Made by a program: the position numbers and the translations under genes. A model generated the notes under the pieces. It had not been told where the DNA came from and ran no database searches. It worked only from the letters and a program-made list of their open reading frames with translations. This document shows, piece after piece, positions 1-12,418 of a stretch of DNA of 64,000 bases. Positions within the stretch are counted from its first letter, which is position 1; each line of letters starts with the position of its first letter. Source of the DNA: an uncultured Nitrososphaeraceae archaeon (GTDB lineage: Archaea; Thermoproteota; Nitrososphaeria; Nitrososphaerales; Nitrososphaeraceae); contig CAWIMJ010000007.1 of assembly GCA_963837175.1 (NCBI GenBank), forward strand, positions 1 to 64,000, written 5' to 3'.

Positions 1-987
1 GCTACCAATGAATTCCATTGCAGTCTTCCATTGATGTTCAAATTCAAAGTCATCAAGCGGTGGATCGCAATGTTCTTTGTTCCAGTTATATGCAAATGAG
101 TGTATGTGGTTTAAAGAAAGGATGCCTGCATTACGCCGTAGTAATGAATCCATTATTCTTAGAATTTTTACTGCACGTTCGCCTTCCAGAAGCTTTATTG
201 AAGGATTGAATAGTTCTTCGATTGGTATTTCTTGCGGTTGCGACTTTCCGTTTCCATTGTTTAAATACCTTAATCCATATTTTCTGCATATATTATCGAT
301 ATGTTCTTCAAAATCATCAACAATGACTGGTTTTTTTGTTCCAATGATTTGGTAACGTTGTCCATTTCTGTGAATCGAAGGTGAACAAAAGAATATTCCG
401 TGCTCGCCTTGACCTTTTATTTCTATTGCAGGAATTGCATTACTATTTATTTGCTGACTACCTAAATGATCATTGGTAATTCTATCGCTACTTTTCTTCG
501 CAAAAGGTCTGTGAGAATAGACATACATATGAGCCTTGTTTGTATCGTCTGAATGCTGTTCAACTAAAGTCCATTGCGCCAACTCATTTAATGAAATAGA
601 TCCTCCATTGCGTGTGCATAATTCTTCAATTGCTTTTAGATTATCAGCATCTATTCCATTAAGATATAAGCCAGACTTTTCTTTATTATGCCATACTTTA
701 CCAAGAATGACAGCCATGCCTTTGTTGAAGGCTCCTGTAGCCTTCCATTTATTATGCAAGTCTTCAGGAATTGGTGTATTCTGATACTCCATTCAAGATG
801 TCGATGTTGTTTTGTTCTGAGTATCTGCAGGTATTACATTAGCGCCTATTTCATAGTACCAAAAATCGGCCCAGCCATTATGATCATCCAAAGGAAAGCT
901 TTTTGAATCGGAGTTATAACCTTCTTCCGCTTTACTTTTGTCAAAAGATTTATCTCGTACATTTGGTATATACTCTTCATTCGTCAT
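1..987 (-). CDS. Bifunctional primase-polymerase (Prim-Pol)-like replication protein, partial, with an in-frame TGA at 793-795
   Basis: ORF 793..987 (WADFWYYEIGANVIPAD) continues in the same frame after TGA as MEYQNTPIPE...GMAVILGKVW...GIDAD...HMYVY...EIKG...SPSIHRNG and stays open to the window edge. DxD, His and PS-H motifs resemble AEP Prim-Pol domains. Confidence 0.7.
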
Positions 988-1195
988 TTTGGGTTAACTC
1001 CTGAGATAACGATGATATGGCATTAGTTACGGGTCCTCCAACCTCTTCTAATGCCTGTTGTTCTTTTTTCTTATGACATTTACAATCACATAATACATCA
1101 AAGCCTAAACCTTGCCATCTACCATAACAGCCATTATGCGTATCGTTCTTACATTGTTTAGAGAGAAAATCTATAGCAGTGGAACTATAAGTCAA
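977..1195 (-). CDS. Small Cys/His-rich hypothetical protein, possibly Zn-binding
   Basis: CKNDTHNGC...CDCKCH; overlaps both neighbouring genes in an operon-like way. Confidence 0.6.
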   Translation of the reverse strand: MTYSSTAIDFLSKQCKNDTHNGCYGRWQGLGFDVLCDCKCHKKKEQQALEEVGGPVTNAISSLSQELTQNDE

Positions 1196-1359
1196 ACTTT
1201 TATTTTACCTCCCTCTGCTTCTTCCAATTCATCCAATAATCGTCGAATCAGACTGGAGTACGACTCTCCGAATCGCCCTTTGTTTTTGAGACGAACGTAG
1301 ACATCTTCTCTTATTAAAACTGTGCACCTCTTGTTAGGTGAGCAACTTTTATAACTCAT
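1192..1359 (-). CDS. Small ribbon-helix-helix/antitoxin-like DNA-binding protein (55 aa, not in the ORF track)
   Basis: Translated by hand: MSYKSCSPNKRCTVLIREDVYVRLKNKGRFGESYSSLIRRLLDELEAEGGKIKV; its stop overlaps the TTG start of the next gene (TTGA). Confidence 0.7.
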   Translation of the reverse strand: MSYKSCSPNKRCTVLIREDVYVRLKNKGRFGESYSSLIRRLLDELEEAEGGKIKV

Positions 1360-1365
1360 TAAACA

Positions 1366-2205
1366 ATGTTCATGAACAACAATTACTTTAGGAATCTTGA
1401 CGAATTTATGGCTAAATTAGACAACAACGTTAAATTAACACAGGAAGAATTGCTACAAACCGGCAGGGTTCTTGTAGGCTGTACAAAATTAATAGATAAT
1501 ATAACTAGCATTAATCCCAAAACATATGCCAAAGCTCGCTCACATCGTCAAACTAAATCTCTGGCCCATGCAACTATATATCACAGCTTGCCGACAATAA
1601 TAAAAGAGAAGCCAAAATTCCGTCCTTATGACATCAAAAAAATTCTTCCAAAAGAGATGCAGAAGATAGATGATGCTTCCTTGACACGCATATTAAGATC
1701 TTCTGTTAACATCAAGGAATTAACTAAACTGAATAATATAACAGACGTCAAAGGTAAGAGGGGACATCCATTTAAAAATAACAATAACACAACTAGTATT
1801 TCTGGTGTGAAGTCATTTTATAAGCATTCATCATATTATGATAGTTTGGAAAAGGTCTTGGCTAAGGCTAAGATGAGAAAGCATATTTACAATCTTCTGT
1901 TAGAATCTGGTCTTCTTCACAGATATTTGAAGCATATTAGGATTATATCGCTTTATATCATAAAAGCAAATGATAAGAAAACAGCTTGGAATATAATCAA
2001 GTCAACTAAACCGCCAAATATGAAAACAGAATCAAAATTTGAAGCTGATTTTGAAGCTGATTACAAGAAGATAAGTGGTATTGAAGATGGCAAGAAACTA
2101 GAAGATATGGCAGAGATGTGGGCTAAGTCATTTATAAAAAATTATAAAGAGAACAATTTTATCAATCTGTATAAAGCTGGTGGACTAAGATTCTACTTAA
2201 ATTAA
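1366..2205 (+). CDS. Basic hypothetical protein of the element, possibly a winged-helix regulator
   Basis: 279-aa Lys-rich ORF, divergent from the replication operon and convergent with the integrase. Confidence 0.6.
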   Translation: MFMNNNYFRNLDEFMAKLDNNVKLTQEELLQTGRVLVGCTKLIDNITSINPKTYAKARSHRQTKSLAHATIYHSLPTIIKEKPKFRPYDIKKILPKEMQKIDDASLTRILRSSVNIKELTKLNNITDVKGKRGHPFKNNNNTTSISGVKSFYKHSSYYDSLEKVLAKAKMRKHIYNLLLESGLLHRYLKHIRIISLYIIKANDKKTAWNIIKSTKPPNMKTESKFEADFEADYKKISGIEDGKKLEDMAEMWAKSFIKNYKENNFINLYKAGGLRFYLN

Positions 2206-5967: not shown

Positions 5968-7071
5968 ATGATGTTTGATAAAATATCATTCAAGCTAGGA
6001 ATTTCTATCTGTATTCTAATTTCAACTGGGCTTTTTTTATGCTATACTTCAAATTCATTAATACCTAGATCCTATGCTCATCTTTCACATTATCCTCATT
6101 ATAACGGTGGAGGAGATGGAGTAGGACAATACTATGCTTATATGGGAACGGATCCAGAATATGCTCGACCCTATGAGATAACCCAAATTACATTTAGTAT
6201 ACAAGATTTCAACGCTAATGATGTCTACAATGTAGAAACTATGGTTGAGATTTATGAAACCCTCACTGGCCAACGAATCGCCGTATATCCATGGACATTT
6301 CATGGCAGTGGTGATTTCAACATTAACTATGTATTCCCAAAGATAGGAAATTATCAGATAGTTCTTAGTGTAGCTAACAGTAACGATTCTACCATCAATT
6401 ACAATGAAATAGATCCTCCAAGAAGTATTCTGGGTAATACTCAGAATTGCAATTGCGATAGAGCAGTTTTCAATGTATCAATATCTAGTAATTTTGGTAG
6501 TATATTTGGCACAACCATGCTCATGGCGGTTGCAGGGCCTATAATTGTATTTGGGGTTGTTTTGGGAGTATCATATAGAAATAGAAGAAAAGGAGGAACA
6601 TATTCAAAGTTATCAGAAAAAGAGATGCTAAAATACACAATAATGTTTTTAGCGATGGCGGCAGGTTTGGTTCATTTAGCAATTTTTTCAGAACATGGCT
6701 CACGTCACATTTATTACAGTGTTTTCTTGTTAACAGCAGGAGTCGCTCAGATCGCCTATGGAATATCTTATGTATTAATCTCTCTAACAAACGAATCTAT
6801 TTATTACAAGAATAAAGATTTCGTAATGACTTATTACCGAAAGACAGTAATACTCAATTTGTTTGGGTTGCTAGGTACAGGAGTACTTCTAGGATTATAT
6901 ACATATTCTGTGATCTTTCCTCCTCCACTCTCACCAGCTAATGAGCCAGAGGCAATAGATTTAGCAGGTGTTCTAGACAAATCTCTAGAGATAGTTTTGT
7001 TTGCAGGAATTATATATCTTATGAAATGGGAAAAGCACAGATCACAGAATCAATTAGTGGATATAAAATGA
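5968..7071 (+). CDS. Membrane protein with signal peptide, extracellular beta-sandwich-like domain and multiple TM helices
   Basis: N-terminal hydrophobic segment, GNYQIVLSV strand, about five C-terminal TM segments containing His (LVHL, EH). Confidence 0.65.
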   Translation: MMFDKISFKLGISICILISTGLFLCYTSNSLIPRSYAHLSHYPHYNGGGDGVGQYYAYMGTDPEYARPYEITQITFSIQDFNANDVYNVETMVEIYETLTGQRIAVYPWTFHGSGDFNINYVFPKIGNYQIVLSVANSNDSTINYNEIDPPRSILGNTQNCNCDRAVFNVSISSNFGSIFGTTMLMAVAGPIIVFGVVLGVSYRNRRKGGTYSKLSEKEMLKYTIMFLAMAAGLVHLAIFSEHGSRHIYYSVFLLTAGVAQIAYGISYVLISLTNESIYYKNKDFVMTYYRKTVILNLFGLLGTGVLLGLYTYSVIFPPPLSPANEPEAIDLAGVLDKSLEIVLFAGIIYLMKWEKHRSQNQLVDIK

Positions 7072-7375
7072 AAAAGCTTTAAATTCTCGTGAGGAGTATT
7101 AATTATATATTCTATATTCCTAAAAGTTTATCTATTAATTTTTCTTGTTTCTTTTTCGATTTGTGATTATAATAGTTTCATCAACATTATATGCCTACAG
7201 TAATAATTATAATTCATACGATTGACAAATACTATGTGAAGCGAATGAAGATGTACAAATCATAAGGTAAAAATAATATTACATTGGAATAAAACAACAA
7301 CCTAACTACTTTAGTTTATTAGAATAACTTCAACAATTAATTATTATTCACAAGAACAAAAAGAACAATTAAACA

Positions 7376-7879
7376 TTATTTATTCAACGATGACTTTGTA
7401 TGCTTCTCTAATTCTGTCACTGTTCTTATCGTTTTGTTTTCAGTTAATTTAAAGGCTGATAGTACCATTATCAAAGTCATTGAAAATAATACCAGCCCAA
7501 GTCCGAGGTGAATTGTCACTAAGGTAGCATGCAATCTCTCAACTATAACAATAGCTCCTAATATTATTTGACCTATCACGGCAATACTAGCAATTATTGA
7601 TGCCGTTTTCATTCCTCTTGTAGCAACTCTAGATTTTAATGTAAATATCATAGTTATAATGACTAATAAGCCAGTTGTGGCTGCAATTGTCCTATGAAAA
7701 TATTCAATAATAAAGTCCTCAAGCGGTATGAGTCCAGCAGGACAGAGCGGCCAGTCAGGACAACTCAAGCCAACTCCAGATGCGTTGACATATCCTCCTA
7801 TAAATATTAGAGCATAAAGTACAGAAATAGTAGACAGGGAAAGGATTTTGAGTATGGCAATATTATTGTTATCTTTCAT
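7376..7879 (-). CDS. ctaA: Heme A synthase (COX15/CtaA, short archaeal type)
   Basis: GLSCPDWPLC, EYFHR, HLGLG; last gene of the cox operon. Confidence 0.9.
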   Translation of the reverse strand: MKDNNNIAILKILSLSTISVLYALIFIGGYVNASGVGLSCPDWPLCPAGLIPLEDFIIEYFHRTIAATTGLLVIITMIFTLKSRVATRGMKTASIIASIAVIGQIILGAIVIVERLHATLVTIHLGLGLVLFSMTLIMVLSAFKLTENKTIRTVTELEKHTKSSLNK

Positions 7880-7911
7880 TTCGTTCTGCTATGATATTAT
7901 TGTTCTTAATA

Positions 7912-8920
7912 TTATTGTACTATTATTTTGCCCGTCATAAATGGATGAACAGAACAATGAAAGTCATATTCTCCTGCTTGTAGATTTGCAGTCATTAATC
8001 TAGCAGATGCTGCAGCATTTATAATACTTGTATCAAACTGCTTACCTGCATCAGGTGCGTCTGGTGTTTTACCACTTGTAACTGTATGTGGCGATGAATC
8101 TTTGTTTACTACATCAATTTCATCACCCTTCTTGACTGTCAGAGAAACGGGATCATAAGAAGGATTGCCAGCAGTAGATGCACCTACAGGAATAGTTAGA
8201 GTAGCAGCTGCTGCTGGAGCAGAAGTCCTACTACCACTACCTGCTGTGGTGCCGGTGGTAGCATTACTACTTGCATTTCCTGCGCTAGTTGCAGCTCCAG
8301 CGCTTGCAGCTGTAACAGTAAGCTTTGATGACATATATGGATGAACGGCACAATAGTATGGTACTTCATCACCTTCTTTTACACCTTTTAGCGTCTGTGG
8401 TGTTGACTTTTCTCCTGGATTTATAATACTAGTATCAAATACTTTACCAGAATCTGGATCTGACGCTCCAGTGCCCGATGTAGCTGTATGTGCAGCAGTA
8501 TCTTCATTAACCCAAACTATGTTATCATTCACGGCTCGCTTTTGCAACATCAGGATTATAATCCGGAGATCCTTGAATAGAAGCTCCTTTTTGTATAGTA
8601 ATCGTTACACCAGCTACTGCTGGTGCATTTGTAGTCGTGCTGCCGCCGCCTTGAGTAGTAGGGGTAGTTGGTGTTGTTGGGGGGCCTTGAGTAGTAGGGT
8701 TAGTTGGTGTTCCTGGCGGGCCTGAAACTTCTGGAGTTGTACCTGCAGTAGGCGGCTGTACTGCTATACTCGAAACAGGTGGAGGATTTTTTGCCATTTG
8801 ATTCCAATTCGGAACAAGTATGACAGTACAAACTGCTATCACAATTACCATGATGGCGAGGCCCTGCGCCATACGCTTTGAAGAAGTTCTAATGATGTGG
8901 CTCTCGTCGTGCGAAGTCAT
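7912..8920 (-). CDS. Membrane-anchored blue-copper protein with two cupredoxin domains (frameshift near 8535)
   Basis: N-terminal TM, Pro/Thr linker, two type-1 Cu sites (HTATSG...CAVHPYM; HTVTSG...CSVHPFM); ORFs 8525..8950 and 7912..8550 join. Confidence 0.85.
7934..8226. repeat. Direct repeat copy 1 (293 bp, cupredoxin domain)
   Basis: Matches 10626-10918 with a single mismatch found by eye (GGTGTTTT vs GGTGCTTT). Confidence 0.95.
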
Positions 8921-10412
8921 AATATTCCTCTCCAATATGGAATGGATCATTTATATCCGCTAATTTACCTCTTCCAGCGCTCTTTATTAAATTCACTAGC
9001 ATTAAGACATATGACGCACCTATCATCGCTCCCCCTACTGATGCAATCTGGTTAAATGCAATCCACTCAGGAAAAGGTGCATAGTCAAAGTATCTTCTGG
9101 GCATTCCGTACAATCCCAATACGTGTTGAGTTATAAAGATTAATATGATTCCTGTGAAAGCTAACGCAAAGTGAACCTGTGCTGCTCGTTCGTTGTACAT
9201 TCTCCCTGTAATAAGTGGAAATAGATAGTAAAGGAAACCAGTGAAGGTTAACGATACTGTTCCCATTAGTATTAGATGGAAATGACCAACTACCCAATAA
9301 CTATCATGTGTGATGAAATCTAAGGGGAGTGCTGTGTTTACTACACCACCTGCTCCTGACGCAAAGAACAGCATGATGCCGCCTACACCAAACAACATGG
9401 GAGCAGCAAACTTTATCCTGCCACCCCACATTGTTGCAATCCAGTTGAATACATGCATGGACGATGCAGGTACGGCAGCCAAGGTGCCAACCATAAACAC
9501 AGTCTTTTCTGTAAAGCTCATACCTGTTGCAAACATGTGGTGCGCCCATGATGCAAAGCCAACGATGGATAGCAATGTAAATGCTGCCACTCCAGACTGA
9601 TAGCTAAAAAGCGGTTTCCTTGAGAATTTTGGTATTGTTTCATAGAGCATACCTACTGCAGGTATAAAAAATATATAGACTTCAGGATGAAACGTAAACC
9701 AGAATAGATGCTGATAAGCAATAGGATCGCCCCCCATAGCAGGATTGAAGAAGCCAGACACTCCAAGTCTATCAGTATAGAGCATAATCAATGCTCCTGC
9801 AAACGTAGGAATAGAAACAATTATCATAAATGAAGTGGTAAGAATCGCCCAAGCAAATAGCGACATTTTCATTAAAGGAAGATCGGGATGTTTCATTTTC
9901 AGAATAGTGACTATGAAGTTTATTGAGCCTAGGATTGAAGAAACTCCAAGAATTTTTGCACCAAATATCCACATATCCGCTGCAGGACCAGCTGCTCTAG
10001 TTATTGAATATGGTGGATAGGCCGTCCAACCGGTATCTGAAAATCCTAGCCAGATGAGTGCACCTGCTACTGGTATCATCCAAAAAGCTACAGCATTAAG
10101 TTTTGGCCAGGCCATATCTTTGTAACGCACCATTATTGGAATAAGATAATTGCCTACACCAGCTGCAAATGGAATTACCCAAAGAAGAAGCATAGTAGTT
10201 CCATGTACTGTAAAAAATCTATGATATGAAGTAGATTCCGGAAATATTTGTATACCTGGTAAGAATAATTCTGCGCGTATCGCCATAGCCAAGGCCCCAC
10301 CCAGCATGAGAAATGTTATAGATGTAAACATATACAGCAAACCTACATCCGTATGATGAGTCGAGAAAAGTATCTCCCACATTGGACGAGGTCTTTTAAT
10401 TTCTAATACCAA
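8889..10412 (-). CDS. coxA: Heme-copper oxidase subunit I
   Basis: FTVHG, WFTFHPEVY, WAHH, HFH motifs; likely start TTG at 10412 (MVLEIKRPRP). Confidence 0.97.
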   Translation of the reverse strand: MVLEIKRPRPMWEILFSTHHTDVGLLYMFTSITFLMLGGALAMAIRAELFLPGIQIFPESTSYHRFFTVHGTTMLLLWVIPFAAGVGNYLIPIMVRYKDMAWPKLNAVAFWMIPVAGALIWLGFSDTGWTAYPPYSITRAAGPAADMWIFGAKILGVSSILGSINFIVTILKMKHPDLPLMKMSLFAWAILTTSFMIIVSIPTFAGALIMLYTDRLGVSGFFNPAMGGDPIAYQHLFWFTFHPEVYIFFIPAVGMLYETIPKFSRKPLFSYQSGVAAFTLLSIVGFASWAHHMFATGMSFTEKTVFMVGTLAAVPASSMHVFNWIATMWGGRIKFAAPMLFGVGGIMLFFASGAGGVVNTALPLDFITHDSYWVVGHFHLILMGTVSLTFTGFLYYLFPLITGRMYNERAAQVHFALAFTGIILIFITQHVLGLYGMPRRYFDYAPFPEWIAFNQIASVGGAMIGASYVLMLVNLIKSAGRGKLADINDPFHIGEEYYDFARREPHH

Positions 10413-10603
10413 CACATATACACCTACTGATGGCAGTGATTGTATATCAATGTCAATAAAAGTATTTTGATTTTTATCAGAACCAATTCTCAAGATCAGA
10501 AAATAATAGACAAACTTACAATTGATTTTATTGTCTATGATGGCTAGAACATGAAATTAGAGTAGTAGTATATTATAAATGAGATAAAAAAAGAGGGTAA
10601 GTA

Positions 10604-11461
10604 TTATTCTACTTTCAGCTTTCCAGTCATAAATGGATGAACAGAACAATGAAAGTCATATTCTCCTGCTTGTAGATTTGCAGTCATTAATCTAGCAGAT
10701 GCTGCAGCATTTATAATACTTGTATCAAACTGCTTACCTGCATCAGGTGCGTCTGGTGCTTTACCACTTGTAACTGTATGTGGCGATGAATCTTTGTTTA
10801 CTACATCAATTTCATCACCCTTCTTGACTGTCAGAGAAACGGGATCATAAGAAGGATTGCCAGCAGTAGATGCACCTACAGGAATAGTTAGAGTAGCAGC
10901 TGCTGCTGGAGCAGAAGTACTACTACTAGCATTACCTGCTGTGGTGCCGGTGGTAGTGGTAGCAGATGAGGAAGTACCCGTCCCAGTAGTTGTTGATTGG
11001 GATTGATTTGTAGTTCCAGTCGCGACTGCCACATTTGTTTGTGTTGGTTCTTCTACAAACAATTTTCCCTTCATATTATAGTGAAGCAGGCCACAGTATT
11101 CCCTGCACTGAATCAAATATTGGCCAGTCTGATCAAACATATTCCATATTGTATTAACTCTGCCTGGAACTGCATCCATTAAAATTGTAAAATCAGGGAT
11201 ATTAAAACTATGGATAACATCTTGGGAAACGACCTCAAATCTATATGGTAATCCCTTTTTTACATGTAACTCTCCTATTTCTTTTGTTCCATCCGCATGT
11301 TCAAAAGTCCAGAACCACTGCTGTCCAATAACTTTAATAATTTCAGATTCTGGAGGTGCATGTTCTAGTACATGTTCTACATTCCATGATTCTGCTCCCA
11401 CCCACGTAAGAAGACTAATTACAACGCCAACATAGACCCATTCTACTGTAGCATGACCCAT
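10604..11461 (-). CDS. coxB: Heme-copper oxidase subunit II (CuA) fused to a C-terminal type-1 cupredoxin domain
   Basis: GQQWFW, DVIHSF, CREYCGLLHYNM CuA motif; Thr/Ser linker; then HTVTSG...CSVHPFM. Confidence 0.93.
   Translation of the reverse strand: MGHATVEWVYVGVVISLLTWVGAESWNVEHVLEHAPPESEIIKVIGQQWFWTFEHADGTKEIGELHVKKGLPYRFEVVSQDVIHSFNIPDFTILMDAVPGRVNTIWNMFDQTGQYLIQCREYCGLLHYNMKGKLFVEEPTQTNVAVATGTTNQSQSTTTGTGTSSSATTTTGTTAGNASSSTSAPAAAATLTIPVGASTAGNPSYDPVSLTVKKGDEIDVVNKDSSPHTVTSGKAPDAPDAGKQFDTSIINAAASARLMTANLQAGEYDFHCSVHPFMTGKLKVE
10626..10918. repeat. Direct repeat copy 2 (293 bp, cupredoxin domain within coxB)
   Basis: Near-identical to 7934-8226; offset 2692 bp. Confidence 0.95.
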
Positions 11462-11760
11462 TAACGATGTGCACTCTCCATTGATTCTCTTGGCTGATTT
11501 TTCTTATTAGATTCGCGGAACCTCCAAATTATGTAGACAATACTACCTTGGACAACAGCGCCAACAATAAATGCCACGACCATTAATCTATAAAATGTGC
11601 TCCATACTTCCACTCGTCTTACAACATACTTTTCTGCAGATTCTTGAGCTAGAGCAAATTCGGCGAGGCTCAAAAGAGATATAATCAGCAAGGGGGCAAC
11701 GGCCAAAAGTAGCCATGACCTTGAATAATACGATGACATATAGATCACTATTCTGAGCAC
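11461..11760 (-). CDS. Small membrane subunit of the oxidase operon (resembles the separated N-terminal TM part of subunit II)
   Basis: Two TM segments ending IIWRFRE; stop/start overlap with coxB. Confidence 0.7.
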   Translation of the reverse strand: MLRIVIYMSSYYSRSWLLLAVAPLLIISLLSLAEFALAQESAEKYVVRRVEVWSTFYRLMVVAFIVGAVVQGSIVYIIWRFRESNKKNQPRESMESAHR

Positions 11761-11794
11761 AATTGAGCTCTACATCTAATTTAAGGTTTTTGGA

Positions 11795-12418
11795 TTACTC
11801 GTTAATGTAACGGTGTATACCCATTACATTCACTGCAGATAAAGAATAAATCTTACTCTCATGCTTTAATATTGTCAGCGCTGCATTACGCATATGCCAT
11901 TGATAAAGCACTTCAGGTTTTAAATCGAGCAAGATAGAGATAACAGCTTTTATTGGATCTAGATGAGTAATCATTAGGATATTTTTGTCTTTATGTTTTT
12001 CTGTGATCTCATCAAGGAGATTCTTTATTCTTTGTTTTACAGATGTAAAAGTTTCGACTCCATTGCTAATTAGTGTCTTATCATTCTCAGTGTAGAATTT
12101 TAAAAATAGATTTCCATATTTCTGAATTATATCTTCATACTTCATCCCAACAAGTTTACCAAGATCAATTTCGTACAGTCGCTCATCTATTTTGTAATTC
12201 ATTCCCAATGTTTTACAAACGATCTTTGCAGTTTCGATAGTACGTATGACAGGACTGACTAAGACTTCTTCTATTGGCATATTTTTTAGATATTTCGCAG
12301 TATCAGAAACCTGTTGTTTTCCGTATTTTGTAAGATGTGACTCGATATGTCTGCCTACTAAGATTCTATTTACATTATTATCAGCCTGCCCATGACGCAT
12401 AAGTACTACGAGTGGCAA
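11795..12418 (-). CDS. Histidine phosphatase (phosphoglycerate mutase-like) family protein
   Basis: MRHGQ, SPVIRTIETA, LYEID, ITH motifs. Confidence 0.9.
   Translation of the reverse strand: MPLVVLMRHGQADNNVNRILVGRHIESHLTKYGKQQVSDTAKYLKNMPIEEVLVSPVIRTIETAKIVCKTLGMNYKIDERLYEIDLGKLVGMKYEDIIQKYGNLFLKFYTENDKTLISNGVETFTSVKQRIKNLLDEITEKHKDKNILMITHLDPIKAVISILLDLKPEVLYQWHMRNAALTILKHESKIYSLSAVNVMGIHRYINE

Follow-up and report, generated by a model that had tools for sequence, protein, structure and literature searches.

A type-1 copper domain tethered to the CuA subunit of a Nitrososphaeraceae terminal oxidase: a plausible copper analogue of the caa3 arrangement

Introduction

The idea of tethering an electron donor to the enzyme that it serves has published precedents: the caa3 oxidases; a fusion of halocyanin to subunit IIa, described in a passage of PMC3128077 for the ba3-type oxidases of haloarchaea; and MCO4 of the ammonia-oxidizing archaea (AOA; Nmar_1354, PDB 9CCK), for which a passage of PMC11761707 describes a 'dangling' C-terminal type-1 (T1) cupredoxin. 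For the terminal oxidase of AOA, a plastocyanin-like donor is given as 'presumably' the electron source in a passage of PMC7785015 and is 'hypothesized' in one of PMC7300363. Here we analyze a gene that bears on the identity of this donor, a coxB from an uncultured Nitrososphaeraceae archaeon (GenBank assembly GCA_963837175.1, contig CAWIMJ010000007.1, positions 1 to 64,000; this whole stretch of 64,000 nucleotides is hereafter called the window). The encoded subunit II of a heme-copper oxidase carries, after its CuA domain, a flexible linker and a second, type-1 copper domain, which we read by analogy as a tethered donor. What is new here is the concerted evolution of this T1 domain with the second domain (domain 2) of a cupredoxin encoded downstream, a subunit II that is split between two genes, and a likely spurious frameshift in the downstream cupredoxin gene.

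Architecture of the fused subunit

Features of the window were read from open reading frames (ORFs), and domains were assigned by Pfam profile searches with curated cut-offs. The coxB gene is laid out as follows.

10604..11461, minus strand: coxB ORF, 285 residues, stop codon at 10604-10606
11378..11461, minus strand: CoxB residues 1-28, a single membrane helix equivalent to canonical subunit II helix 2 (from alignment and model)
11048..11356, minus strand: CuA cupredoxin domain, residues ~36-138 (from PF00116, matches to CoxB chains in the PDB and invariant columns)
10901..11047, minus strand: low-complexity Thr/Ser/Ala/Gly linker, residues ~139-187, with two N-x-S/T sequons (from composition and model confidence)
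10607..10900, minus strand: type-1 (blue) copper cupredoxin domain, residues 188-285, amicyanin-like (from PF13473 and PF00127)

A first-pass annotation made from the sequence alone had proposed this succession of CuA domain, linker and complete type-1 cupredoxin, and both Pfam profiles and PDB alignments bear it out. Residues 72-130 match COX2 (PF00116, E 1.7e-19, 70.3 bits against a cut-off of 22), residues 199-282 match Cupredoxin_1 (PF13473, E 2.9e-16, 59.8 against 27) and residues 203-285 match Copper-bind (PF00127, E 2.5e-9, 37.9 against 21.2); the Pfam search of the 285-residue protein gave no match to PF02790, PF00034 or PF13442. Against the NCBIfam equivalog TIGR02866 the protein scores 103.1 bits and does not reach the cut-off of 147.7, a shortfall that fits a missing helix 1 together with divergence. 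The N-terminal half aligns with subunit II chains in the PDB, the best being Paracoccus 1qle_B (E 5.1e-17), whose alignment begins at residue 77, its second membrane helix, and Thermus 2yev_B matches the CuA domain (E 6.2e-12). For the C-terminal 100 residues the best PDB matches are amicyanins (E 6.6e-8).

Both metal sites are intact. In an alignment of 24 fused homologues sharing 57-92% identity with the window protein, which also underlies the linker comparison, the predicted His, Cys, His and Met ligands of the T1 site are confirmed as H228, C272, H275 and M278, invariant in 24/24; equally invariant are the CuA ligands H84, C119, E121, C123, H127 and M130. Residue W49 is likewise conserved in 24/24 and aligns with Paracoccus W121, which we take to be the electron-entry residue. 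The ligand loop of the T1 site has the short spacing Cys-x2-His-x2-Met.

Could such a domain handle copper rather than electrons, as a local store or as a chaperone that loads CuA or CuB? It is generally known that AOA depend on copper and that CuA is assembled by way of periplasmic chaperones, and a passage of PMC7785015 discusses CopC for oxidase assembly. However, the full His-Cys-His-Met set and the amicyanin-type loop are typical of electron carriers, and searches with Pfam and NCBIfam profiles revealed no similarity of the T1 domain to the Sco or PCuAC families. We regard a copper-handling role as highly improbable.

The linker, anticipated as some 50 residues rich in Thr, Ser and Ala, proved to be just that: residues ~139-187 are 94% T/S/A/G/P/N/Q, and at least one N-x-S/T sequon occurs in the linker of 23 of the 24 homologues. 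An AlphaFold2 single-chain model built on the same alignment has a mean predicted local distance difference test (pLDDT) score of 65.7 and a predicted template modeling (pTM) score of 0.39. The T1 domain is modeled confidently (block means of 77-94), the CuA domain with moderate confidence due to the shallow alignment, and a helix is placed at residues 2-28; linker residues 141-185 fall below a pLDDT of 50. A fold search with the whole model returned generic two-cupredoxin proteins only (laccases, nitrite reductases and AOA MCO4) at root-mean-square deviations of 14-20 Å, with MCO4 (PDB 9CCK) as the top match, and is uninformative as to how the domains pack. Among these matches were the three-domain copper nitrite reductases of Hyphomicrobium, in which, we assume, a tethered domain has the role of donor. 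The predicted topology would put everything after the membrane helix, from CuA through the linker to T1, outside the membrane.

Concerted evolution with a neighboring cupredoxin

The T1 domain has a near-identical counterpart within the same gene cluster, which the first-pass annotation did not mention.

10602..10901, no strand assigned: copy 1 of a 300-nucleotide direct repeat, the CoxB T1 domain, 97% identical to 7910-8209
7910..8209, no strand assigned: copy 2 of the direct repeat, domain 2 of the downstream cupredoxin
7912..8950, minus strand: membrane-anchored two-domain type-1 cupredoxin, consisting of anchor, Pro/Thr linker, domain 1, linker and domain 2

The direct repeats lie 2.7 kb apart; they are 97% identical over 300 nucleotides (96.3% over 353 by blastn of the pair in the window), with 9-10 differences between them and distinct flanks. 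Another contig (G000:C9:98916-99206) holds a third copy, which is 97% identical in protein and belongs to a second two-domain cupredoxin gene, and cupredoxin genes in the genome amount to 16 matches. The locus of this second gene (L088, G000:C9:97416-100706) shows ORFs at 816..1418 and 1294..1797, split by a frame change in the linker, and is followed by a gene for a SufC-like ABC ATPase.

We built a maximum-likelihood tree of 39 T1 domains from 15 genomes, of which 13 are fused to CoxB, 16 are domain 2 (including the third copy) and 10 are domain 1. All domain 1 sequences fall into a single clade (support 99/98, one label change). The CoxB-fused domains and domain 2 are fully interleaved, their labels needing 12 and 13 changes, and each fused domain is placed next to domain 2 from the same genome or shares an unresolved cluster with it. 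Within each locus the DNA of the two copies is 89.4-98.4% identical over 261-336 nucleotides (12/12 loci), and the similarity reaches the stop codon, or comes within a few codons of it, in 11 of these 12. Between genomes, the T1 domain of the window is only 51-82% identical in protein to those of others, and protein divergence of the T1 and domain 2 copies between genera is about 40-50%. Because the copies are near-identical within genomes and divergent between them, this pattern indicates concerted evolution by repeated gene conversion, and not a recent duplication in one strain; conversion between the direct repeats would keep both copies near-identical in each genome. Such family-wide concerted evolution of a pair of redox domains offers a clean natural example of gene conversion inside a respiratory operon.

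Where did the fused domain come from? It is derived, by copying, from the anchored cupredoxin's domain 2. Two unfused loci (L046 and L057) have domain-2 copies that branch below the mixed clade, in a tree that is midpoint-rooted and in which both of these entries are long-branched, and this placement is compatible with the fused domain having been derived from domain 2 just once. Sustained homogenization would further imply that the two domains are functionally interchangeable, so that they should see the same partners.

A skeptic might see in this pattern a largely neutral passenger, i.e. a domain 2 duplicated onto the 3' end of coxB and continually overwritten, via gene conversion, by a downstream copy under selection. 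Concerted evolution in all 13 genomes examined is what a passenger would show, and one genus of the family as well as other families retain the oxidase with no fusion at all. However, the frame, the linker and the stop position have been kept across many genera at ~40-50% protein divergence, and linker indels preserve the frame. Although conversion tracts leave the linker unmaintained, it has stayed open, low in complexity and furnished with sequons in 23/24 homologues. Additionally, similar fusions arose independently in other archaea. A passenger is, in our judgment, very unlikely.

Distribution of the fusion

The first-pass annotation had left it undecided how widespread this architecture is and had allowed that it might be both common and documented. 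It turns out to be common. A word-index protein search scored 8000 candidates and yielded 4475 proteins at E <= 0.001; the best 120 of these 4475 are all 275-291 residues long, 76-100% identical and already annotated with PF00116 plus PF00127 or PF13473, and they go by the database names 'cytochrome c oxidase subunit II' or 'cupredoxin domain-containing protein [Nitrososphaeraceae archaeon]'. Among representatives clustered at 50% identity, a search gave only 8 clusters below E 1e-30, a number too small for surveying the fusion. For a survey of loci, one genome per species was scanned with the CuA part alone, and the 73 loci recovered were classified by script.

20/73 loci: complete fused ORF
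24/73 loci: ORF leaves the contig end within linker or T1; in 16 of them the frame already includes some of T1
2/73 loci (L037, L050): CuA ORF stops in the linker, with T1 in the overlapping next frame
3/73 loci (L046, L057, L058): complete and unfused
18/73 loci: other AOA lineages, 138-165 residues, unfused; mainly Nitrosotenuis, with one Cenarchaeum, one Nitrosomirales record and broadly labelled metagenome-assembled genomes (MAGs)
5/73 loci: non-archaeal
1/73 loci (L081): too short for classification

Contigs that carry fused ORFs reach lengths of 455 kb and 1.16 Mb (L019, L035). A separate survey of the family covered 151 genomes, with a match in 120 (89 of the 103 high-quality genomes); one unpublished genome, G114, is counted in these family tallies only. 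An open frame of at least 260 residues surrounds the CuA domain in 65 of the 120 genomes with a match, single-contig genomes among them, and frames of intermediate length (196-249 residues) lie mostly at contig ends. In one fused genus, three single-contig genomes have frames of 323-328 residues, and in one of them CuA and T1 share the same 328-residue frame. The fusion is thus the majority state of the Nitrososphaeraceae. The other half of the surmise fared differently: no description of an AOA CoxB-cupredoxin fusion was found in the open full-text literature that we searched. The AOA fusion is, apparently, common and automatically annotated by domain, but undocumented.

Independent sequence data

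A join between a coxB gene and a sequence that recurs nearby invites the suspicion of an assembly artefact. The T1 domain is a 97% repeat, 24 of the 73 public loci end within the linker or T1, and contigs from independent runs stop at the repeat edge. Nevertheless, the coxB frame continues through a linker that is specific to coxB; the repeat copies are told apart by 9-10 differences and by their flanks; and the same fused ORF is found in single-contig genomes, on very long contigs and in the best 120 of the 4475 protein matches. An artefact joining coxB to repeated cupredoxin sequence is therefore extremely unlikely, and we rejected the assembly chimera on the grounds that single-contig genomes and long contigs carry the fused ORF. 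The 300-nucleotide repeat does account for the breaking of short-read assemblies at coxB, and shortened 'CoxB' entries are likely to be common in databases.

At least half of the sampled words of 7300-11900 occur in each of 20 public runs, which come from 12 studies and include six RNA libraries, and we compared the Logan contigs of two DNA runs and two RNA-library runs with this region. Contigs of these four runs cover the ORF upstream of coxB, the CuA domain, the linker and the T1 domain, and the contigs from the RNA libraries include CuA, linker and T1. One RNA-library contig of 803 nucleotides, running from 11699 to 10898, crosses the junction between the upstream ORF and coxB and then the entire linker, as far as the repeat edge. 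Both DNA runs lack cover at 10688-10841, which is explained by collapse of the repeat onto 7954-8205. The repeat piece in an independent soil run has a depth of 28.9 against 9.2-9.3 in its flanks, the ratio expected for three collapsed copies. The CoxB linker shows indels of 3 and 9 nucleotides in independent contigs, multiples of three. Across soil populations, linker lengths differ at 10895, 10924 and 8226 by 3, 9 and 6 nucleotides, all in frame.

The same contigs inform the status of the downstream cupredoxin gene, which in the window is split by a +1 frame change near 8537, in domain 1, into ORFs 8525..8950 and 7912..8550. The base at 8537 is absent from every covering contig in three of the four runs (one DNA and two RNA-library), the fourth having no cover there; since independent contigs lack the extra base, the frame break probably reflects an error of assembly or a private mutation. 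Relatives have intact orthologues of 303-345 residues, and the second split cupredoxin, on contig 9, hints at indel errors in low-complexity DNA. The earlier count of three type-1 copper sites in the operon stands in that both downstream domains carry the H/C/H/M ligands; it holds as a count for the operon only if the break at 8537 is an error or a private mutation, as the independent contigs suggest.

A subunit II probably in two pieces

Subunit II of A-type oxidases has two N-terminal membrane helices on one polypeptide, a pattern from which this locus departs: the CoxB ORF begins at the equivalent of helix 2. Directly before it lies a second small gene.

11461..11760, minus strand: upstream ORF of 99 residues, a leader or hydrophobic segment plus one membrane helix

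Its stop codon overlaps the coxB start (TAATG), and 80 of 85 loci have a homologue immediately before coxB, the five without one being non-archaeal (some loci with G handles in this set of 85 duplicate named records). The 99-residue ORF matches TIGR02866 weakly at profile positions 9-50 (E 3e-5), and the 285-residue protein covers positions 56-194. A profile of 18 upstream ORFs finds as its best PDB match the first transmembrane helix of the Thermus caa3 subunit II (2yev_B, residues 44-73), at an E value of only 0.18. It is suggestive, not proven, that this ORF encodes the detached first transmembrane helix of subunit II, which we call CoxB-N. We also considered programmed frameshifting or readthrough between the two ORFs and rejected it, because relatives show either an in-frame stop or an overlapping stop and start at the junction. 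On the same evidence, the division of coxB appears to be a true and conserved gene split. The detached helix recalls subunit IIa of B-type oxidases as presented in a passage of PMC3128077.

Proposed role of the tethered domain

How might electrons reach CuA in such an oxidase? The premise that AOA lack c-type cytochrome carriers holds for this genome, in that neither a Cytochrom_C (PF00034) nor a Cytochrome_CBB3 (PF13442) domain was found by profile search in the assembly, which is 91% complete. The genome contains an archaeal amoA, and only one CuA subunit gene was found in it. We propose that subunit II consists of two polypeptides, the upstream helix-1 protein and a protein comprising helix 2, CuA, linker and T1, and that the linker is probably glycosylated. 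Outside the membrane, the tethered T1 domain, once loaded with copper, would serve for electron entry or as a relay. Electrons would come from the complex III side, reaching T1 directly or through self-exchange with the identical domain 2, and would go on to CuA via the conserved Trp entry site, as they do from the fused cytochrome c in caa3. If T1 and domain 2 share their surface and potential, each of them could dock on CuA and exchange electrons with the other with no driving-force penalty. This reading draws on a donor-type domain tied to an acceptor subunit, with the T1 site and the entry Trp of CuA both intact, and by analogy with caa3 we consider the overall mechanism, in which T1 feeds CuA, to be fairly probable. 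A stronger version is conceivable, though we rate it as rather unlikely: the fusion would be a copy of the donor domain placed on its own acceptor, selection would keep the copies identical for exchange at zero driving force and for docking on the same CuA patch, and domain 2 would be the immediate donor to complex IV in all AOA.

Several observations weigh against a tethered donor to CuA. The linker, at 36-58 residues across the 24 fused homologues, is unlike the tightly packed cytochrome c domain of caa3, and the single-chain model, with its pTM of 0.39, gives no fixed arrangement of the domains. Gene conversion can persist neutrally between nearby repeats, and the identity of the copies is no proof of selection. 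One well-sampled genus of the family is unfused (18 of its 19 genomes with a match have frames of 163-186 residues, three of them in single contigs), and all 18 loci recovered from other AOA lineages also do without the fusion; the fused domain is, consequently, dispensable for an AOA oxidase. Contigs from RNA libraries are no proof of transcription. Finally, among the Logan contigs listed, none spans at least 31 nucleotides on both sides of the repeat edge near 10900 in this strain: no listed contig joins CuA to the deeper part of T1, because the pieces stop at that edge, and this gap is uninformative on the last join, neither proof nor doubt.

The length of the linker also raises the question of whether T1 serves CuA at all. 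It could be a swinging relay for other partners, such as periplasmic dehydrogenases, a hydroxylamine-oxidizing module or a complex III-IV supercomplex, with the anchored cupredoxin as the true donor to CuA. A long linker of variable length (36-58 residues) and a model with no fixed docking would suit a swinging arm. The unfused lineages keep the two-domain cupredoxin of the operon, which suffices as a donor, and the 16 cupredoxin matches in the genome imply a network of copper relays. Fusion to an acceptor is, however, most simply explained by a raised local concentration of donor at CuA, and for such partners T1 would have a competitor in the identical domain 2. We judge the swinging relay unlikely, and we favor the electron-entry role at CuA. 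The locus points to a specific candidate donor, a domain fused onto the CuA subunit whose sequence is held identical to that of one domain in the operon's own anchored cupredoxin. CuA, linker and T1 together make a small soluble construct in which intramolecular electron transfer from copper to copper could be measured.

The surrounding gene cluster

The minus-strand oxidase cluster runs in the order 99-residue ORF, coxB, coxA, two-domain cupredoxin and a short CtaA-like gene. Its remaining members are as follows.

8889..10493, minus strand: coxA, heme-copper oxidase subunit I (PF00115, E 6.9e-138)
7376..7879, minus strand: short CtaA/COX15-like heme A synthase gene, 167 residues, at the end of the cluster (PF02628, E 1.2e-19)

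The coxA gene lies directly downstream of coxB, so subunit II is encoded beside subunit I. CoxA reaches 513.9 bits against TIGR02891, under the cut-off of 670.75, and by such profile comparisons the oxidase of the window scores best as the CtaD/CoxA type. In the 167-residue CtaA/COX15-like protein the PF02628 match spans profile positions 75-177 of 322, about a third; it is possibly a half-size heme A synthase. Adjoining the oxidase cluster, 5968-7071 on the plus strand encodes a protein of 367 residues with an N-terminal exported domain and a C-terminal membrane part of several helices, for which only weak, sub-threshold Pfam matches (DUF981, DUF4781) were obtained.

Relation to other tethered donors

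How does this CoxB stand among its relatives? We scanned 83 CoxB representatives chosen from 150 listed (the six best matches and then mostly longer proteins, the other 67 being left out). Of these 83, 38 carry a cytochrome c domain and three are fusions of CoxB with PF00127: P0124, from the AOA clade, P0152 and P0238. P0238 is labelled Thermoplasmatota and its relative P0271 Halobacteriales, and both come from MAGs; P0152, of 471 residues, runs from a two-helix N-terminus through CuA to a tandem pair of T1-like domains and ends in a membrane helix. Like the CoxB described here, P0238, P0271 and P0152 place a PF00127-type domain after COX2. They differ in having the canonical two-helix N-terminus (PF02790), other types of T1 loop and a CuA part that is related at 36-41%, and on these three grounds they count as independent inventions.

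Among other proteins, amicyanin (e.g. 1AAC) is the closest solved type-1 protein by sequence, with the cupredoxin fold and the same Cys-x2-His-x2-Met loop (E 6.6e-8 to 1e-7). Amicyanin differs in being a free periplasmic carrier of methylotrophs, and the T1 domain is not its orthologue, since it scores 35.3 against an NCBIfam amicyanin cut-off of 110.2. The MCO4 protein, as described in a passage of PMC11761707, comes from the same organism group and likewise bears, beside a copper enzyme, a C-terminal His2-Cys-Met T1 domain that hangs from an unstructured linker, but its host is a two-domain multicopper oxidase and its linker has 15 residues. The halocyanin-IIa fusion, as covered in a passage of PMC3128077, also joins a blue-copper donor to a membrane piece of an oxidase, in archaea that use cupredoxins and not cytochrome c. 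There, in a B-type enzyme, the cupredoxin sits on the small helix IIa that stands in for helix 1, whereas here the T1 domain follows CuA and the helix-1 piece has no copper domain.

The likeness to caa3 that the first-pass annotation drew is borne out in domain order. In the caa3 oxidase of Thermus thermophilus (2YEV, chain B), as in this CoxB, the redox carrier is fused C-terminally to the CuA subunit on the outer face, so that CuA, linker and T1 follow one another as CuA and cytochrome do there. The two differ in that caa3 has heme c as its carrier, compact packing and helix 1 on the same chain, whereas this CoxB has a T1 cupredoxin, a disordered linker of 36-58 residues and a separate helix 1. 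With the defining heme c domain absent, the CoxB of the window is not a member of the caa3 group and at most works like one; its reading as a copper analogue of caa3, with its own donor on a flexible arm, is plausible.

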